A DNA stretch of 39,011 nt from Gemmatimonadota bacterium (lineage in GTDB: Bacteria > Gemmatimonadota > Gemmatimonadetes > Gemmatimonadales > GWC2-71-9): the NCBI GenBank assembly GCA_039588295.1, contig JBDHAB010000038.1, forward strand, positions 1 through 39,011. Reading direction: 5' to 3'. The position numbers were made by a program, and so were the translations under genes. Positions 1 through 7,673 of the stretch are shown piece by piece. The notes beneath the pieces were generated by a model, which was not told where the DNA came from, searched no databases, and saw only the letters and a program-made list of their open reading frames with translations. The first letter of the stretch is position 1. Each line of letters opens with the position of its first letter.

Positions 1-77
1 TCTCTCGGTGCGCATGTAGAAGTCCCAATTCCCGTCGGTGGCGGGTTTCCGCGTCTCACCATATTCCTTGGTCCGCG

Positions 78-581
78 ATGAGACTTCTACGCTCGGCCCT
101 GCTCGTGATGACCGCGGCCGTGTCCGCGACGGGCTGCGGAAACGAAGTTGGTCCTTCCGTATCGATCTTCGGTACGTATGCGCTCCAGACATTGAATGGG
201 CAGTCGGTCCCGTACGTCGTGCACGTTCTCGGGAACCCCGACGGCACGATGACGAGCACACGCGAGTGCATTGGTGGATCTTTTGGCCTCAACGGCGAAT
301 TCGATACTTGGGTTTCTAGCCTTGCCTACCGCAATACCAACAGGGAGACAAGCACCGGGAACGTAACGGCCGTTGGGTATGATACGTTAACGGACTCCGG
401 TACATTCACCACTAGCAACGGCAGCTTTCAGTTCACACGGGACCCCGGGCTTATGCCAGCAGGATTCTTTCCATCTGCAGGTGAGGTCACAGGATCGGTC
501 TCAGGGGATACTCTCACAATCGTGATCCCACGGGCACAGCCAGCCGTGATAAGAGAGCACGTGATGGTGTTCACGAAGTGA
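78..581 (+). CDS. Hypothetical lipoprotein, beta-rich
   Basis: 167-aa ORF with basic N-terminus, hydrophobic stretch and lipobox-like ATGC; no recognisable catalytic motif; more A/T-ending codons than the core genes. Confidence 0.7.
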   Translation: MRLLRSALLVMTAAVSATGCGNEVGPSVSIFGTYALQTLNGQSVPYVVHVLGNPDGTMTSTRECIGGSFGLNGEFDTWVSSLAYRNTNRETSTGNVTAVGYDTLTDSGTFTTSNGSFQFTRDPGLMPAGFFPSAGEVTGSVSGDTLTIVIPRAQPAVIREHVMVFTK

Positions 582-600
582 TACCCCAGACGTTGGCCCC

Positions 601-627
601 GCGCCGGGCGCTGTCGTCTCTGCCCCG
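601..627 (+). repeat. 27-bp direct repeat, left copy (partner at 5714-5740)
   Basis: GCGCCGGGCGCTGTCGTCTCTGCCCCG vs GCGCCGGGCGGTGTCGTCTCAGCCCCG, 25/27 identical by manual alignment. Confidence 0.85.
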
Positions 628-718
628 AGCGTCACGCGGCGTTCGGGGCGTTCTGGTGCTCAGGGGACACGGCCCGTAGGTTCTGCCATTCCCCTCCAAG
701 GAGCGTGCAATGCGCCGC
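622..718 (+). repeat. Leader repeat copy 1 (short form)
   Basis: GCCCCGAGCGTCACGCGGCGTTCGGGGC hairpin, GGGACACGGCCCGTAGG, CATTCCCCTCCAAGGAG, 6 nt, ATG CGC CGC. About 40 nt shorter in the middle than copies 2 and 3. Confidence 0.9.
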
Positions 719-1228
719 ACGATTCTCCCGCTGATGCTGTTCGCTCCCGTGCCGCTCCTGCCCGCTATGTCGCTTGCCCAACAGACGCAGGTTTACAGGC
801 ACCCGTCCTTGAACATCGCGTTCGAGGCCCCGGAGAACTGGCGACAGGTGCCGCGACCGGAGGATGGACTCATCTACGAGGTCGCCGATCCTGACGATGC
901 CGTCCACGTCGTGCTCTGGTCCACGACAACTGAGCAGGGCGCGGCGGATTACCTCTGGAAGATGGCTGATATGAAGGGCCTGATCGTCCCAGATAGGCCT
1001 ACGCCCACTCGGATCGGGGGCAGTGATGCCTGGGTGCTGAATGTCCCTGGCTATGAACGAAACGCTCCCGTTCGGGAGACTTTGGCCGTGATTCCGCACG
1101 GGAAGTCGGTGGAGTGGCCGAAAGAGAACGTCCTCTTCATCGTGATGATCTGGTGTCCAGAGGAGGACTACGAGCAGCACAAGCAACGCATGGAGGATAT
1201 CCTCGGCAGCGTGCGGATTGTGGAGTGA
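710..1228 (+). CDS. Secreted hypothetical protein (possibly PsbP-like fold)
   Basis: AAGGAG RBS, signal peptide ending SLA-Q; YRHPSLNIAFEAPENW and C-terminal MEDILGSVRI resemble PsbP-like proteins (weak). Confidence 0.75.
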   Translation: MRRTILPLMLFAPVPLLPAMSLAQQTQVYRHPSLNIAFEAPENWRQVPRPEDGLIYEVADPDDAVHVVLWSTTTEQGAADYLWKMADMKGLIVPDRPTPTRIGGSDAWVLNVPGYERNAPVRETLAVIPHGKSVEWPKENVLFIVMIWCPEEDYEQHKQRMEDILGSVRIVE

Positions 1229-1759
1229 GCGCGCAAGAAGAACGTCTTGTACCATGCTGGGGGTGAACCCGCACCTGAAGCTGCCGCGCGCCTGAACACT
1301 GCCGCGTAGCCACAGGTCTCGTAGCGCCACACTTCCCACCGCTCATCCAGCACCCCGCACCGAAGCACAGTTGTAGCGCGTAGCGGCCTCGCGCCCAACA
1401 CGTCATCACGCTGCGCACGGAAGGTGCAGATACGGTCCATCGCGGTCTCCGGTGAAGGGTGCGCGACGGTGGGGCAGAACTCTCAACAACACGTCCACAG
1501 CAACTGAAAAACTCTCAAATCGTGAGAGGCATACCGGACTATTTCACTTTGATTGTGGCATTGCTACGACTCTTGTCAGCAATGGCCCCGTGCCGTAATA
1601 CCCACGACACAAACCGAATCATTCCCGTCGGTGGCCCTCTACGGCGGCGGGGGTACCGGCGGTGGGGGAAGTACAGTCTTCTGGCCACGTCCCCGCGCTC
1701 AGGGGTAGGCGACAACTCGAGTGCTTCTATCGCCGCGGATAAGACCTAAAGAGAGGGAC

Positions 1760-4033
1760 ATGCAGGTGCCAAGGTCGAAGAGCGTCTTGACGATCATGAC
1801 CGCGCTGGCCGTGTTCGCCGCGTGCTCGGAGGAGATGGGTACCGAGCCGGTGCTACCGCCGGTACGGTCGGCTCAACAGATCACATGCCAGGCTGACGTT
1901 CATGCGGGGAGACTGCAGTGCAGTGACCCAGCAGCTGCAGCGATAGAGGGCGGCCCTTTGTACTCTGTGGTTCTTGGAGGACAGGGGACCTATGTCCAAC
2001 TGACGTCGAGCAATGTGAGCTACGACGGCGGCACCGAGATCTTTCAGGCCGACGTGACGGTGCAGAGCCGGCTCGGGCAACTCATGGGCACCCCTGACGG
2101 AACCACCGTGACCGGAATCCGCGTCTTCTTCCATACGGGTCCTACAGTTACGAGCGGCACGGGAACGGTTACGGTGGCAAACGCGGCCGGCGTGGGTACG
2201 TTCACCGGTTCCGGCCAGCCGTACTTCGAGTATGACGAGATCCTTGATGCGTACGCGATATCCGCGCCGCTCACCTGGCAGTGGAATGTGCCGCCGACGG
2301 TAACGATGTTCGAGTTCACGGTCCTGCTCGACACCGACATCCCGGTGCCATCCGGCGTTCTCCAGTGGCATCTTGACCGCCCACCGCCCGCAGGGAGTTG
2401 GGAAATCTGGGGTATGGGTGATGAAGTCTATGCCGTGAGTCAGTATTCTACGAACGCAGTCTTCCAGTTCGATGGAGCCGGTTGGCAGCCGCAATCTCTC
2501 CCTCAATATGCACGTCTCTTGGCCATCTCAGGCAGCTCCTTGGACGACATCATTGCGGTCGGGGAAGACGGTGCGATCGTTCACTATGACGGTACGACGT
2601 GGAGCACCCAGGTGAGTCTCACGTCGGAGGACCTCTACGGAGTGTGGAGCGACTCACCGACGTCCGCTTTCGCAGTCGGGTCGAATGGGGTGATCCTGCG
2701 GTACGACGGAGCGTCCTGGGTACCCCAGACGAGCGGTACGAGCGAGGGGCTCTTGTCGGTCTGGGGCACGTCCCCAACCAACGTCTTCGCTGTTGGAGGC
2801 ACGGGAACGATCCTTCACTTCGATGGAACCTCGTGGACGCCACAGCAGAGTGGCACAACCCTGCCCTTGGGTTCAGTTTGGGGGCTTTCCGCGACAGAGG
2901 TATACGCGGTCGGCGACGACGGCACGTTCCTGCGGTTCGACGGCTCGACATGGACAGATGTGGTGGGCGCGCCCAGTGGGGACAAGTACGATGTCTGGGG
3001 TACCGCCACGGACAACATCTACGTCGCGGGCTCCGGCGTCTGGCACTACGACGGCGCGAGCTGGAGCCAAGTGGTCACAGGAGATGAGGTCGAGACCATC
3101 TGGGGTCTCTCGGCGAGCGATGTGTTCGCACTCGGTGATCACGTACACCATTACGACGGTGCGGGCTGGTCGGTGCAGGAGACGAATCTGGAGTTGCAGG
3201 ACGTGTGGGGCTTCGCCTCGGACGATGTGATCGCGGTTGGATCTGATGGCACGATCCTGCGTTTTGACGGGAACAAATGGACGTCTCAGAGCGCGGGCAC
3301 GACCATGGATCTTGCGAGCGTGTGGGGCTCGTCACCACAGGACATCTTTGCCGTCGGCTCAGGCGGGGGCGGTGCCATCTTCCACCATGACGGGAATACG
3401 TGGACGCCTCAGAACAGCGGGACGACCCAGCCGCTGAACGGGGTCTGGGGCTCGTCCGGTAGCGACGTCTTCGCCGTGGGAGACAACGGCACCATCGTTC
3501 ACTACGACGGAGCGTCATGGACCACCCAGTCGAGCGGCACAGCTGAACATCTAGCTGGGGTTTGGGGAAGCTCCGCCACGGACGTGTTTGCGGTCGGGAA
3601 TCATTACACCATCCTGCACTACGACGGCACGAGTTGGAGTCTTCAGATGACAGTGCCCAGCATTCCCAATCGATTCCACAGCGTCTGGGGCAGCTCCGGA
3701 ACGAATGTGTTTGCTGCGGGATTTGGTCCGGTCATCTCCGGCGGATGGGGCGCCGACATCTATCGATATGATGGGAGTTCCTGGACACAGATGCCCGTCC
3801 CGGCCGCCAGCGGGGAACTGGTCAAGATCCAGGGAACATCTGGAACCGATGTGTTCGCGGTTGGCACGACAGGGAGCGGGGGCTACCTGTTCCACTTCGA
3901 CGGCGGGGTCTGGAGGTTTCACCCTTGGTTCCCCTACTTCTCGAGCTCCATTGGTCTCGGGAGTGCCTGGGGCAGCGGACCGGATGACTGGTTTGTGGTG
4001 GGGCGTTTTGTGATCTTGCACGGCACGCGTTGA
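1760..4033 (+). CDS. Lipoprotein with N-terminal beta domain and 14 VWGxSxxDVFAVG repeats (probable double beta-propeller)
   Basis: GAGAGG precedes ATG at 1760; lipobox FAAC; 14 repeats of about 39 aa counted in the translation. Confidence 0.85.
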   Translation: MQVPRSKSVLTIMTALAVFAACSEEMGTEPVLPPVRSAQQITCQADVHAGRLQCSDPAAAAIEGGPLYSVVLGGQGTYVQLTSSNVSYDGGTEIFQADVTVQSRLGQLMGTPDGTTVTGIRVFFHTGPTVTSGTGTVTVANAAGVGTFTGSGQPYFEYDEILDAYAISAPLTWQWNVPPTVTMFEFTVLLDTDIPVPSGVLQWHLDRPPPAGSWEIWGMGDEVYAVSQYSTNAVFQFDGAGWQPQSLPQYARLLAISGSSLDDIIAVGEDGAIVHYDGTTWSTQVSLTSEDLYGVWSDSPTSAFAVGSNGVILRYDGASWVPQTSGTSEGLLSVWGTSPTNVFAVGGTGTILHFDGTSWTPQQSGTTLPLGSVWGLSATEVYAVGDDGTFLRFDGSTWTDVVGAPSGDKYDVWGTATDNIYVAGSGVWHYDGASWSQVVTGDEVETIWGLSASDVFALGDHVHHYDGAGWSVQETNLELQDVWGFASDDVIAVGSDGTILRFDGNKWTSQSAGTTMDLASVWGSSPQDIFAVGSGGGGAIFHHDGNTWTPQNSGTTQPLNGVWGSSGSDVFAVGDNGTIVHYDGASWTTQSSGTAEHLAGVWGSSATDVFAVGNHYTILHYDGTSWSLQMTVPSIPNRFHSVWGSSGTNVFAAGFGPVISGGWGADIYRYDGSSWTQMPVPAASGELVKIQGTSGTDVFAVGTTGSGGYLFHFDGGVWRFHPWFPYFSSSIGLGSAWGSGPDDWFVVGRFVILHGTR

Positions 4034-4116
4034 CCGAAATGGCCCCGGGGGGCCGCAGGAGGACCGGACCACCGAGACCTACACAGCAGACCGTGAAGTG
4101 CTATTCGGTTCGCAAT

Positions 4117-4252
4117 GCCCCGATGCGTCACGCGGCGTTCGGGGCTTTCCAGCCCGTCCCACCGTCATCTCCGACAACGCCTTCGCTGTTTCTCACGGGA
4201 CACGGCCCGTAAGCTTCTCACATTCCTTTTCAAGGAGGGCGCAGTGCGTCGC
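4117..4252 (+). repeat. Leader repeat copy 2
   Basis: GCCCCGATGCGTCACGCGGCGTTCGGGGC, CATCTCCGACAACGCCTTCGCTGTTTCTCACGGGACACGGCCCGTA, CATTCCTTTTCAAGGAG, 6 nt, GTG CGT CGC. Confidence 0.9.
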
Positions 4253-5089
4253 ATGAGAAGGGTTCTGACCTGCGTTTTGATCGCCGGGTTGTTGTCGACG
4301 ACCGCGAGCGCGCAGGCAGTTCCCGGTCAGGGTGGCGACCAGGCGACCGTATGGTACCTGCGCCATGCAGGATGGGCGGTTCGCCTCGGCGACGCGCTAC
4401 TGGTCTTCGATTACCAGGAGTCGCTTGGGATGGAAGACGTCACGGCCGACACTCCGCGCAATCTCGAGAATGGACTCATCGATCCCGAAGAGATCAGCGA
4501 TCTCGACGTGTTCGTCTTCGTGACGCACGCCCACGGTGACCATTACGACCCCGTCATCTTCGAGTGGCAGGATGAGATCGAGCGCCTCACCTACTTCATT
4601 GGTTGGGAAGAACTCCCGGAGTCACACTGTGAACGGCTCACCGGAGCCGACGCCAACTGTCACACCATGGGGGGGCTGCGGGCTACAGCCGAGGTGGGTG
4701 GCATCGAAGTCTACACGATCGATTCCCACCACAACGATATTCCCGAGGTGGCATACCTGGTCCGTCACGGTGACTGGATGGTGTATCACAACGGCGACTA
4801 CATGGCCGACCACGTGGATGATTACGCCTATCTGAAGACGATCAGCGACCGAATCGACGTGGCGTTCGTGGCTGGACTTCCGGGCCACAGCTGGCCCCAC
4901 TTGGCTCGGGCCGTTCACCTTGCTCGCGAGTTTGATGTACCGGTGCTGTTCCCGATGCACTTCCGCGATCGGGAGATGTGCGAGACGTTCGTCGCCGACG
5001 TGGCAGCGGAGGGTGTGAGCGCCGAGGTCACGTGCCCGACGGCGCGGGGGCAGCGGTTCGTGGTGGCGCAGGGTGGTAGCGGGCGGTAG
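4244..5089 (+). CDS. Secreted MBL-fold metallo-hydrolase
   Basis: THAHGDH (HxHxDH), YLRHAGW, YHNGD and FPMH motifs; signal peptide ending ASA-Q; start placed at GTG 4244 by RBS spacing. Confidence 0.85.
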   Translation: MRRMRRVLTCVLIAGLLSTTASAQAVPGQGGDQATVWYLRHAGWAVRLGDALLVFDYQESLGMEDVTADTPRNLENGLIDPEEISDLDVFVFVTHAHGDHYDPVIFEWQDEIERLTYFIGWEELPESHCERLTGADANCHTMGGLRATAEVGGIEVYTIDSHHNDIPEVAYLVRHGDWMVYHNGDYMADHVDDYAYLKTISDRIDVAFVAGLPGHSWPHLARAVHLAREFDVPVLFPMHFRDREMCETFVADVAAEGVSAEVTCPTARGQRFVVAQGGSGR

Positions 5090-5129
5090 GGCGAACCGGC
5101 AGTGGACGGTGGGAAAAGTGGTGGGACTG

Positions 5130-5267
5130 GCCCCGAGCGTCACGCGGCACTCGGGGCGTTCGATTCGGCCACACCTGACACCATCTCCGACAACTCCTTC
5201 TCTGTTTCGCACGGGACACGGCCCGTAGGTTGGGCCATTCCCCTCCAAGGAGGCCCTCATGCGTCGC
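5130..5267 (+). repeat. Leader repeat copy 3
   Basis: GCCCCGAGCGTCACGCGGCACTCGGGGC, CATCTCCGACAACTCCTTCTCTGTTTCGCACGGGACACGGCCCGTAGG, CATTCCCCTCCAAGGAG, 6 nt, ATG CGT CGC. Confidence 0.9.
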
Positions 5268-5675
5268 ATCAGTATCTGTGCTGCTCTCGTCGCCCTCTTG
5301 GCTTCCACCTACGCAGTCGCCCAAGCGCAGACGCTCGTCCTCCAGCAGAACAAGTGCGATATGGGGAAGGTCGGTGAGATTCGCGCCTTCGTCGACTCCG
5401 CATTCGTGCCAATCGCACAGGAGCTTGTCAACGAGGGCAAGATCATGGGATTTCACTCGGCGTTTCACTCCTGGGGCGATGAGTGGAACGTGGTGTACAT
5501 CTACGTGGCCGAGGACATCCCGGCATTCCTCAGCGCATTTGGGGAGGTGTTCTCCCGTATGGTGGAGCGGTATCCCGAAGCCATGCCGATGATGCGGGAC
5601 TGGTGCTTCGAGCACAAAGACAGCTTCCTTAGCATGGGGAAGATGACGGAGCACCCGCCAGCGCCCGACCGCTAG
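5259..5675 (+). CDS. Small secreted hypothetical protein (possibly NIPSNAP-like alpha/beta barrel)
   Basis: AAGGAGG RBS, signal peptide ending AQA; HSWGDEWNVVYIY and CFEHKD segments; two cysteines in the mature part. Confidence 0.75.
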   Translation: MRRISICAALVALLASTYAVAQAQTLVLQQNKCDMGKVGEIRAFVDSAFVPIAQELVNEGKIMGFHSAFHSWGDEWNVVYIYVAEDIPAFLSAFGEVFSRMVERYPEAMPMMRDWCFEHKDSFLSMGKMTEHPPAPDR

Positions 5676-5696
5676 CACTCGCTCGGAATCAGCTAT

Positions 5697-5728
5697 GGCA
5701 CCGCCCGGCCTCTGCGCCGGGCGGTGTC
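5697..5728. terminator. 13-bp GC stem-loop between convergent genes, probable terminator
   Basis: GGCACCGCCCGGC-CTCTGC-GCCGGGCGGTGTC (one G-T pair); no long T tract. Confidence 0.6.
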
Positions 5729-5740
5729 GTCTCAGCCCCG
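5714..5740 (+). repeat. 27-bp direct repeat, right copy
   Basis: Matches 601-627; similarity to the leader stops right after GCCCCG. Confidence 0.85.
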
Positions 5741-5796
5741 CGCCCACTGGTGCGGAACGTTGCGCGAGTCTGGGATGCTGACCTCGGAATCGCCGC

Positions 5797-6324
5797 TCAG
5801 GTGGTCTTCACGTACAGGAACACATCCTGAGCGTCATCACTGAGGTTCGGGAAGGTCATGTACTGCCGCAGCCGCGCCTCCCGCTCCATCCCCGCCTTCT
5901 CCAGCGCACGAGCGGACGCGCGGTTGTCCACGTGACAGCAGGCCTGGAGGCGGACGATGCCCGGGAGGGAGAGGCCGAACTCAACGACCGCGGTCGCCGC
6001 CTCGGTGCCGTAGCCCTGGCTCCAGTACTCTCGCGCAATATTGAATCCGAACTCAGCACGGGGCGGTGTGACCCGTAAGTGCATGGCGCCGATCAGTGTT
6101 CCGTCAGCAGCGAGCGTGATAACCCACGGGTACCCGTCCTCCGCACTGTGCGAGCAGAAATGCTCGAGGAATTGGTGCGTCTCGTCTATCGAGTGATGGG
6201 GGGTCCAGCAGACGTAGCGCGCGACCTCCGGATCCCGTGCGTAGCCGTCGTAGATCGCAACCGCGTCCTCGCGTCGCGGGGGGCGGAGAACCAGACGTCG
6301 GGTGGTCAGGGAGTTGAGCGGCAC
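5797..6324 (-). CDS. GNAT N-acetyltransferase, RimJ/RimL family
   Basis: LTTRRLVLRP, YWSQGYGTEAA and NRASARALEKAGM motifs; GTG start chosen to avoid overlap with the upstream gene. Confidence 0.9.
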   Translation of the reverse strand: MPLNSLTTRRLVLRPPRREDAVAIYDGYARDPEVARYVCWTPHHSIDETHQFLEHFCSHSAEDGYPWVITLAADGTLIGAMHLRVTPPRAEFGFNIAREYWSQGYGTEAATAVVEFGLSLPGIVRLQACCHVDNRASARALEKAGMEREARLRQYMTFPNLSDDAQDVFLYVKTT

Positions 6325-6340
6325 GCCGGTCCGCCAGCTG

Positions 6341-6880
6341 CTAGCCGATGGACGGAGGCTGCCCCGGAACGGCGACGAACGAGCCACGCACCGTGAACGA
6401 GTCCGGGACCCCTGCCGATGACGAGACCACGGTCACCATGAACGAGAACTCGCCGGAGAGTCGCGTGTTGCTGGAGCCGGTGATCGTGAGTGTCCCCGAC
6501 TCGGATGCAAAGAACCCGAACAGGCCGTCGGGACGTTGGAACACGTAGCCGCCGTCAAAATCCTCGGGATCGCAGTTGGCGCACTGGCCGGACACGATCG
6601 TGTACGTGCCCACCGACGGTCGTTGCGCCAAGAAGCGGGCTATCACGACCACGTCCACGTCGAGCGAACTGATCTCGCCGTCCTGCAACGCAATGACGAA
6701 CCCTTGCTGTCCTTGCTGATCTTGGACCGCGAACACCGCAGTACCCTGAAGCGACAGGCCGAGACGCGTGACGGTTGCCGTAAACGACCCTTGGGAGCCT
6801 GGTGGGGGCGGGGCGGTCCCGTCACCGCATGCCAGGCCGATACCGACCATTGCCAACGCGAAGCCCGCAAATCTCCTCAT
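6341..6880 (-). CDS. Hypothetical lipoprotein
   Basis: MRR N-terminus, lipobox GLAC, proline linker, beta-rich body with CxxC. Confidence 0.75.
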   Translation of the reverse strand: MRRFAGFALAMVGIGLACGDGTAPPPPGSQGSFTATVTRLGLSLQGTAVFAVQDQQGQQGFVIALQDGEISSLDVDVVVIARFLAQRPSVGTYTIVSGQCANCDPEDFDGGYVFQRPDGLFGFFASESGTLTITGSSNTRLSGEFSFMVTVVSSSAGVPDSFTVRGSFVAVPGQPPSIG

Positions 6881-6911
6881 GCCGACGCTTCCTCGATCGC
6901 GAGTGGGCCAG

Positions 6912-7673
6912 TCACTGCTGCAGAAACCGCCCCACCGCGTGTTTGAAATCGGGCGTCGCCCGCGCCACGGCGTTCACCTTGGCACCGAGCGCGACGGCGT
7001 CCGCAAACTTCATCCCGTCTATCTCATACAACTGCCGCTTGATGAACGCGAGGGCCGACACGCTGCGGGATGCCAGCTGTCGAACTACCTCACTGGTCTC
7101 CGCGGCGAAGCCATCATCGGGCAGCACGCGCGAGACGATCCCCAGCGCCCGTGCTTCCCCCGCACTCAGTAATCTACCGGTGCCTACGAGGTCGAACGCC
7201 ACTTTCTCCCCGACGGCACGGCGCAGCATGGCCATCACCATCGCGGGGACAAAACCTCGGCCGACTTCAGGATAGCCGAACGTGGCCCGCTCGTGCGCCA
7301 GTACGAGGTCGCACGCCGTCACGAGCCCGCAGCCGCCGGCCAGCGCCCTGCCCTGCACCACCGCGACGACCGGCTTGGGCAACCCTCGCAGGCGGATGAA
7401 GACCTCACCGAGCCGCATCGCCTCCGCTTCATTCTCGCCGAGCGACCGGTCGGCGGAGGCAAGAAGTTCCGCCAGGTCGGCCCCGGCGCAGAAATCCTTC
7501 CCGGCACCGCGTAACGCCACGACGCGTACCGTGGCATCCAACTCGGCTCGTTGCAGCGCCTCGAGCAATGCGGCGACCATCAGCTGGTCGATGGCGTTTC
7601 GCTTCTCGGGACGGTTGAGCGTGAGCCACAACACGCCGTCCGTTGCCTCGGCCGTCAGCCGTTCAGTCGGCAC
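6912..7673 (-). CDS. Enoyl-CoA hydratase/isomerase (crotonase), methylglutaconyl-CoA hydratase-like
   Basis: LNRPEKRNA, FCAGADL, ALAGGCGLVTACD, FGYPEV motifs. Confidence 0.9.
   Translation of the reverse strand: MPTERLTAEATDGVLWLTLNRPEKRNAIDQLMVAALLEALQRAELDATVRVVALRGAGKDFCAGADLAELLASADRSLGENEAEAMRLGEVFIRLRGLPKPVVAVVQGRALAGGCGLVTACDLVLAHERATFGYPEVGRGFVPAMVMAMLRRAVGEKVAFDLVGTGRLLSAGEARALGIVSRVLPDDGFAAETSEVVRQLASRSVSALAFIKRQLYEIDGMKFADAVALGAKVNAVARATPDFKHAVGRFLQQ

Follow-up and report, generated by a model that had tools for sequence, protein, structure and literature searches.

A repeat lying between genes for secreted proteins in an uncultured marine-sediment genus of Gemmatimonadota appears to be a composite of two DNA modules, a hairpin (H) and a promoter-like leader (P), drawn from a small lineage-specific kit found in variable secreted-protein islands. 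The window, i.e., the whole stretch analysed, spans 39,011 nucleotides (contig JBDHAB010000038.1, 1 to 39,011) of Gemmatimonadota bacterium GCA_039588295.1, hereafter G000. The modularity of the repeat, its copy number and orientation, the swapping of leaders, the exchange of genes between species and the breaks of homology at H are all evident in the sequences compared. We consider it probable that H and P form a terminator and promoter kit whose copies serve host recombination as exchange points, in a manner resembling the promoter-early stem-loops (PeSLs) of T4-type phages and the erp genes of Borrelia.

The related genomes used for comparison included G003, G004, G008 and G254, and all genomes are incomplete drafts (G003 being 93% complete). 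Repeats were traced with profile hidden Markov models and direct base-pair counts, since H shows no covariation. The gene set of G000 (4178 genes) comes from a hexamer-based caller made for this analysis, and all signal-peptide counts given below follow a crude rule.

Three window copies of a two-module repeat

A sequence-only reading of the window had described three copies of one leader, each running from a hairpin through GGGACACGGCCCGTA and CATTCC..CAAGGAG and then, after exactly 6 nt, into RTG CGY CGC. We recover all three in this order, with hairpins at 622-649, 4117-4145 (carrying a 1-nt insertion) and 5130-5157 and starts at 710, 4244 and 5259, the promoter module of copy 1 being shortened at its front by ~19 nt and its spacer absent. 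A fourth, truncated hairpin stands at 5735-5743. The repeat is far above chance, as profile searches find 58 hairpin copies on 27 contigs and 16 copies of the ~85-bp leader in G000, with 0 of either in the reversed genome. The proteins of the three genes behind the leader (a, b and c) are unrelated, as had been supposed: their mature parts do not align, the best E between bodies being 0.6. The one resemblance is between the signal peptides of b and c (residues 1-25, E 0.004-0.009), and because the relatives of b carry the same signal peptide this likeness is not a shared DNA module.

The idea of a portable expression leader placed on unrelated secreted-protein genes survives this comparison, while that of a single element gives way to two separable modules, with H mostly occurring without P. 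The reported end of the likeness after three codons (MRR) does not apply to gene a, where it runs to about codon 12 against other leader-bearing genes.

The hairpin module as a predicted terminator

H consists of 28 conserved bases with sharp edges, followed in a logo of 140 copies by a decaying TTTCGGTTG tail, and constitutes the most repeated intergenic 16-mer set of G000. Both modules are nearly confined to one Gemmatimonadota genus. At ≤2 mismatches H is present in 7 of the 8 other genomes of the genus and in 0 of 32 from other genera; at 3 mismatches 8 of 401 genomes from the order carry it, including three from other genera with 1-3 copies; and the exact matches, 48 among 185,579 genomes, all fall in Gemmatimonadota. 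P is present in 4 of 121 genomes of the family, including G254, which also carries H. The H pattern recurs in 119 stretches of metagenomes and has no match in IMG/VR viral contigs; the H-P unit has none in phage or plasmid records.

Its setting suggests that H acts as an intrinsic terminator of the gene upstream. That gene is co-oriented with H in 44 of 54 scored G000 copies (3 more have no upstream gene) and in 80 of 100 from relatives (8 without one), and H lies mostly <100 nt past its stop, falling within a called gene in 1 of 165 copies. The gene downstream shares the orientation of H in just 32 of 56 cases in G000 (p 0.35) and in 75 of 98 in relatives. H folds stably (z -2.4 to -3.4), with 4.3 T in the next 8 nt, and its GC-rich stem, T-rich tail and position after a co-oriented gene together mark it as a predicted terminator. 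Copies within 5 kb of each other are on the same strand in 84 of 89 cases, and 52 of 57 are situated no more than 10 kb from the end of a contig, a zone that makes up 39% of the genome. Signal peptides are called in 24 of 39 genes upstream of H and in 15 of 28 on its downstream side; the overall figure is 674 of 3794.

P follows 6 of 57 G000 copies of H, and is the largest of at least 17 sequence families found downstream of it. Among the further leader families behind H (loci L011, L014, L019 and L021), one stands on lipoproteins starting MRYLR or MRKL with differing bodies and another on Ser/Thr kinase genes.

The leader module and the genes behind it

We posit that P combines a sigma70-type promoter with a ribosome-binding site, a start codon and the front of a signal peptide. 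Of its 59 distinct copies, 36 have a ribosome site and start recognised by rule, and in 34 of these a TAnnnT box begins 32-35 nt before the start codon. This -10-like box has its A2 and T6 98% conserved, and T stands at -23 in 94%. It matches a pattern seen across G000, in which TAnnTT peaks at -40..-31 before starts (390 sense vs 175 antisense) with T at -23 in 47%. The -35 hexamer of P is weak, and several of the remaining 23 copies lose their likeness soon past the -10 box. Full-length copies have H directly upstream in 13 of 24 cases (G000 and fetched loci). P shows no fold signal (z 0.34 and -0.21) and a small stem is complete in 13 of 48 copies. These values, together with the lack of any Rfam match, tell against the cis-regulatory RNA that the sequence-only reading had entertained. 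In Rfam, the three arrays gave nothing at the gathering cut-off, and window positions 1-7000, scanned by E-value, gave two sub-threshold hits (E 4.1 and 5).

The 35 P-led proteins longer than 50 aa, some of them cut by locus ends, fall into 19 body clusters (BLAST E 1e-3), some of which remote homology could merge: 13 SnoaL-like proteins, four pairs (one being the same gene in overlapping loci) and 14 singles. With 29 of the 35 being signal-peptide-like, this amounts to leader fusion, one promoter/leader standing before many unrelated exported bodies. Comparison of gene b with its counterpart in G004 locates one such joint: the two share 88% DNA identity from 4252 (about codon 4) to the stop, the flanks differ, and the G004 locus has neither H nor P. 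At its start, b agrees with the P family over the first codons, and codons 3-5 may hold a microhomology of 5 nt. Its close homologues mostly start MRN, not MRR, and some have a different signal-peptide front half. We infer the direction of the event as leader capture.

Gene a agrees with a SnoaL-like lipoprotein of G000 over ~12 codons, beyond which the likeness ends. In P0017, a close relative of gene a, 11 residues are missing between two signal-peptide Met codons, as from a short-repeat deletion. The anticipated variation of gene content behind the leader is seen in the cross-genome comparison, and the alternative proposal of a gene cassette with a fixed capture point is not supported, as the junctions vary on both sides.

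Islands and exchange of genes between species

The conserved flank is 71-75% identical between species as compared to 85-98% for the island blocks (among the matches listed). At the site beside the GNAT gene, G003 and G004 have different genes that bear H, and G008 has none. In G003 (L012:10005-10166), one H array extends up to a copied 3' end of GNAT beside a gene that, by resemblance, we take to be RecQ-like; in G008 (L051) the GNAT and RecQ-like genes are direct neighbours, an arrangement suggestive of integration at the 3' end of GNAT. Among the 148 of 175 listed proteins that were scanned, the islands show remnants of integrases, fragments of transposases and toxin-antitoxin genes, and tRNA genes lie close to several islands. 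ComEC is found in 5 of 5 genomes, a weak indication since it is also matched in 10 of 14 controls.

Pairs of H loci that are alike downstream differ upstream in 138 of 141 cases, and those alike upstream differ downstream in 15 of 18. Where gene pairs at 80-99% identity have H on both members, the block of homology reaches H in 15 of 25, and 10 of the 15 stop at its far edge; of the five running on past H, three represent one trio of loci. Several other homology blocks end at the 5' edge of P. On this evidence gene exchange appears to map to H, as a boundary that is not obligatory.

A proposed mechanism and its alternatives

We propose that H would close the upstream gene and insulate the next one, and that P, as one of several leader families, would supply the promoter, ribosome site, start and signal-peptide front. 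Being repeated in co-oriented arrays across species, H and P offer short homologies to host recombination, which might swap gene-sized units between islands and species, a pathway that we deduce from the patterns described above. New frames would be joined to the leader by illegitimate, probably microhomology-assisted joins at variable points (close to where transcription would begin, at the ATG, in codons 3-5, at codon 12 or mid signal peptide), with selection retaining the in-frame, exported fusions.

A number of observations weigh against this proposal. Lengths of 28-37 bp are short for RecA-type recombination. Homology breaks before H in 10 of the 25 gene pairs with H on both members, another 31 gene pairs have a single member with H, and in 21 of 30 pairs where neither member has H homology likewise breaks ≤66 nt past the stop. 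No excision running cleanly from one H to another while preserving both flanks was seen; the three breaks in collinear regions include one with H at an end (4552 bp in G003 vs 375 bp in G008). Window copies 1 and 3 have the tail GTTC, which suits a terminator poorly. Moreover, H is more conserved than terminator function requires. In a position-neutral set of 155 copies the loop bases 13, 14 and 16 are altered in 4, 9 and 7, respectively, and base 15 in 34 (three alleles), and in linked units H is 91% identical vs 77% for P, being higher in 75 of 78 pairs.

This conservation can be explained by recombinational homogenisation or by protein recognition. At position 21, a C is carried by 17 of 24 copies in G004 and by 21 of 123 elsewhere, a genome-specific allele indicative of H sequences being copied from one to another within a lineage. 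As these sequences do not vary independently, the p-value of the contrast is too strong. The G-T pairs are mostly kept, except for T21 changing to C (42 of 155), and there is one double change among the 155 copies with no covariation. That loop and wobble bases are kept without compensatory change suggests that a protein may read H. Substitutions in H showed no informative bias between strands (26 vs 24, in a set with change allowed only at positions 15 and 21).

Recognition by a protein is central to an alternative that we regard as possible but doubtful, namely that H is a dedicated recombination site, with 10-bp inverted arms and an asymmetric 8-bp core or acting as a folded single strand, that builds integron-like arrays and terminates transcription only secondarily. 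Such a site would account for the single double change and the constancy of loop and wobble bases in H, while the loops of T1, a second hairpin family, vary (12 types in 23); it would also suit the sharp edges of H, its top rank among intergenic 16-mers, the co-oriented arrays and the blocks ending at H. However, none of the enzymes tested tracks H, the intI loci are without it and a dif-like site exists separately (see below), genes gain and lose H, and the junctions with H-less relatives are scattered (-3 to +131 and -108 to -2). Further, base 15, which would sit inside the core, is the freest. A cassette system across the genus that is independent of an integrase, with H as its protein-read site and the leader kit turning captured frames into expressed, exported proteins, is an equally tentative extension; if true, it would represent a natural secretome-shuffling machine. 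If the conservation of H does reflect a binding protein, an unrecognised recombination or regulatory factor would be involved.

Copying among H copies, as indicated by the position-21 allele across unrelated genes, also runs counter to the view that H and P are passive leftovers of expanded paralogue families (SnoaL-like lipoproteins and others), spread by tandem duplication, selection and random body replacement with no role in exchange. This view, which we hold to be unlikely, draws on the 13 of 35 P-led proteins belonging to one SnoaL-like family, the retention of P by gene c in 5 of 5 loci, the breaks that are common near gene ends without H, and the missing H-to-H excision. Yet it sits poorly with the blocks that stop at the far edge of H or the 5' edge of P, and with islands up to 98% identical across species that are exchanged from H onward. 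Two further explanations appear very improbable. H could be mobile DNA inserting after stop codons, akin to repetitive extragenic palindromic (REP) sequences or miniature inverted-repeat transposable elements (MITEs), being short, palindromic, lineage-specific, intergenic and present in 58 copies. This is largely refuted by the lack of homologues with an empty site (0 of 228 H copies) and of any conserved flanking tetranucleotide tag or target duplication in the logo, by the strand bias and island clustering, and by the distance of ~30 kb separating the sole Y1 transposase-like gene of G000 from the nearest H. Alternatively, the whole 100-140 nt unit could be a cis-regulatory RNA (riboswitch or attenuator) in the 5' untranslated region. 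In keeping with this, H forms a stable fold, is found 60-103 nt ahead of the start in the copies followed by P, and can form tandem hairpins with T1. Against it stand the lack of an Rfam family match and of covarying structure in H or over the unit, the unfolded P and the free separation of the two modules, and the -10-like box between H and the start, which would place H outside the transcript.

Recombinases and known element classes

Integron cassette arrays have the integrase IntI and attC sites with RYYYAAC/GTTRRRY ends. The arrays described here resemble them as co-oriented, gene-sized accessory units that often end in a shared palindrome and are exchanged between species. Unlike integron cassettes, H lacks RYYYAAC/GTTRRRY ends in the logo of 140 copies, and the genes carry their own promoters and do not keep H. 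IntI is neither linked to H nor co-occurring with it: it was found in 5 of 9 genomes of the genus, with none in G003, and the intI loci (contig C3 of G000 and four others) lack H. A looser scan for CTAAC..GTTAG gave two sites, on C36 and C53, at least 1.9 kb from H, and a stricter scan with a fold filter gave none. On G000 C3 (L120:1-1721), a canonical integron integrase at the contig end adjoins a short cassette-like gene and is unlinked to H.

Among the draft genomes, none of the recombinases tested (IntI, tyrosine recombinases, IS91-type Y2, Y1, reverse transcriptase, IS110 and resolvase) tracks the copy number of H. G003, with 26-29 H matches, has no IntI over the cut-off and no reverse transcriptase, IS110, IS91 or resolvase match; of its three tyrosine recombinase matches, two are a strong Xer-like pair found in every genome. 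The IS91-type Y2 search likewise had no match in G003 or G008. An IS91-type transposase remnant lies 149 nt downstream of H at L101:12786-12965, and the same spacer follows H at G000 C7:225266. The Y1 gene of G000 (C5:80387-80845) is IS200-like, lies amid core metabolic genes and is possibly domesticated, presumably being without the usual second His and catalytic Tyr. For the dif/pdif sites of XerCD, the 28-bp length fits and the sequence does not. An AT-rich site that we take to be dif-like lies apart from H at G000 C18:46591, on a contig that also carries an Xer-like recombinase gene. Taken together, the H-P array is not shown to be an integron or a MITE.

Relationship to known systems

In PMC2839356 and PMC4122927, promoter activity, termination and mini-circles are shown for the PeSLs of T4-type phages. 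The H-P unit shares with them (same sources) a terminator stem-loop with G-T pairs (GGGG..CCCC), a sigma70-type promoter, a Shine-Dalgarno sequence and a start codon, as well as a position between variable genes of plastic regions and use as an exchange point for which no dedicated recombinase is known. Like PeSLs, it is a composite, repeated intergenic unit to which exchanges appear to map in a non-obligatory manner; its location is not in T4 phages. As far as the described PeSLs go, it differs in residing on a bacterial chromosome of a GC-rich lineage, in the separability of terminator and promoter, in the pairing of H with many leader families, in a largely secreted cargo, in a leader that extends into signal-peptide codons, and in being known from sequence alone.

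The upstream homology box of Borrelia erp genes, as set out in PMC10016077, offers a parallel in having one promoter/leader before many unrelated exported bodies and frequent recombination. However, erp in that account is one allelic site on cp32 prophages at which the whole leader peptide is kept, whereas here the junctions vary, many islands hold scattered copies and the prevailing element is a separate 3' hairpin. By analogy, the feature seems to work like PeSL and erp and to belong to neither. The lpl cluster of Staphylococcus aureus (PMC2568036) is a lipoprotein-gene island in which a unit of gene end, spacer and next gene start is shuffled by homologous recombination; there paralogues recombine inside the reading frame, unlike the unrelated bodies and shared intergenic sequence seen here. 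A literature search found nothing on this element or its setting, most subscription journals being outside its coverage. On homology-facilitated illegitimate recombination and start-associated sequences it gave nothing on point besides the lpl study.

If our proposal holds, terminator-promoter shuffling in the style of T4-type phages would operate in a bacterial chromosome, genus-wide and with a bias to secreted proteins. It would make it possible to trace how foreign reading frames acquire expression together with export at a single step, through junctions mappable to the codon, and the modules provide a first candidate promoter and terminator consensus for a poorly studied lineage.

Features of the window and minor observations

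The features, with their coordinates and strand, are as follows.

78..581, plus: secreted lipoprotein-like gene, no Pfam family; H1 lies 40 nt past its stop.
595..615, plus: T1 remnant (3' part; second hairpin family); T1 often lies 11-13 nt before H.
622..653, plus: H1, a 28-bp hairpin (12-bp stem, two G-T pairs, 4-nt loop) with a short tail; putative intrinsic terminator and preferred crossover point.
652..718, plus: P1, a 5'-truncated promoter module of predicted activity; -10-like TAGGTT at 677-682, AAGGAG at 698-703, first codons.
710..1228, plus: gene a, 172 aa, secreted, no family; its first ~12 codons match P-led SnoaL-like lipoproteins (G000 C73:3155).
1270..1640, minus: Z, a third repeated module, with a leader region and a frameshifted small Cys-rich open reading frame (ORF); up to 16 overlapping matches elsewhere in G000.
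1760..4033, plus: repeat-rich lipoprotein gene; H2 lies 84 nt past its stop.
4117..4149, plus: H2, with a 1-nt stem insertion and a TTTC tail.
4166..4252, plus: P2, a full promoter module; -10-like TAAGCT at 4210-4215, AAGGAG at 4232-4237, GTG CGT CGC.
4244..5089, plus: gene b, a secreted metallo-beta-lactamase-fold protein (PF13483); its G004 counterpart is without H or P.
5130..5161, plus: H3, 40 nt past the stop of gene b.
5182..5267, plus: P3, a full promoter module; -10-like TAGGTT at 5226-5231, AAGGAG at 5247-5252.
5259..5675, plus: gene c, 138 aa, secreted, no family; the 5 homologous loci all carry P, and 1 of them has H upstream.
5695..5743, plus: a complete T1 hairpin, then the truncated H (5735-5743), with fold z -4.1; right end of the island.
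5797..6387, minus: GNAT gene, the first of the conserved flank (GNAT, lipoprotein, enoyl-CoA hydratase-like and following genes).

For genes a and c, Pfam gave no family and the ESM Atlas just unnamed clusters or low-ranked families. Marine sediment runs contain pieces identical to the window, and sediment contigs diverge from it at 622 and 653, i.e., at the edges of H1. Joints of H, P and Z in sediment contigs were built at 85% likeness, possibly come from other organisms and are not counted as evidence. T1 has variable loops, and 23 copies are followed by H at 11-13 nt. The ORF on the minus strand of Z, of ~50 aa and Cys-rich, matches no Pfam family over the cut-off (DUF7838, E 0.55); it is intact in some copies and frameshifted in the window. 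In three copies of Z, H lies 5 nt from the position of the ORF start codon.

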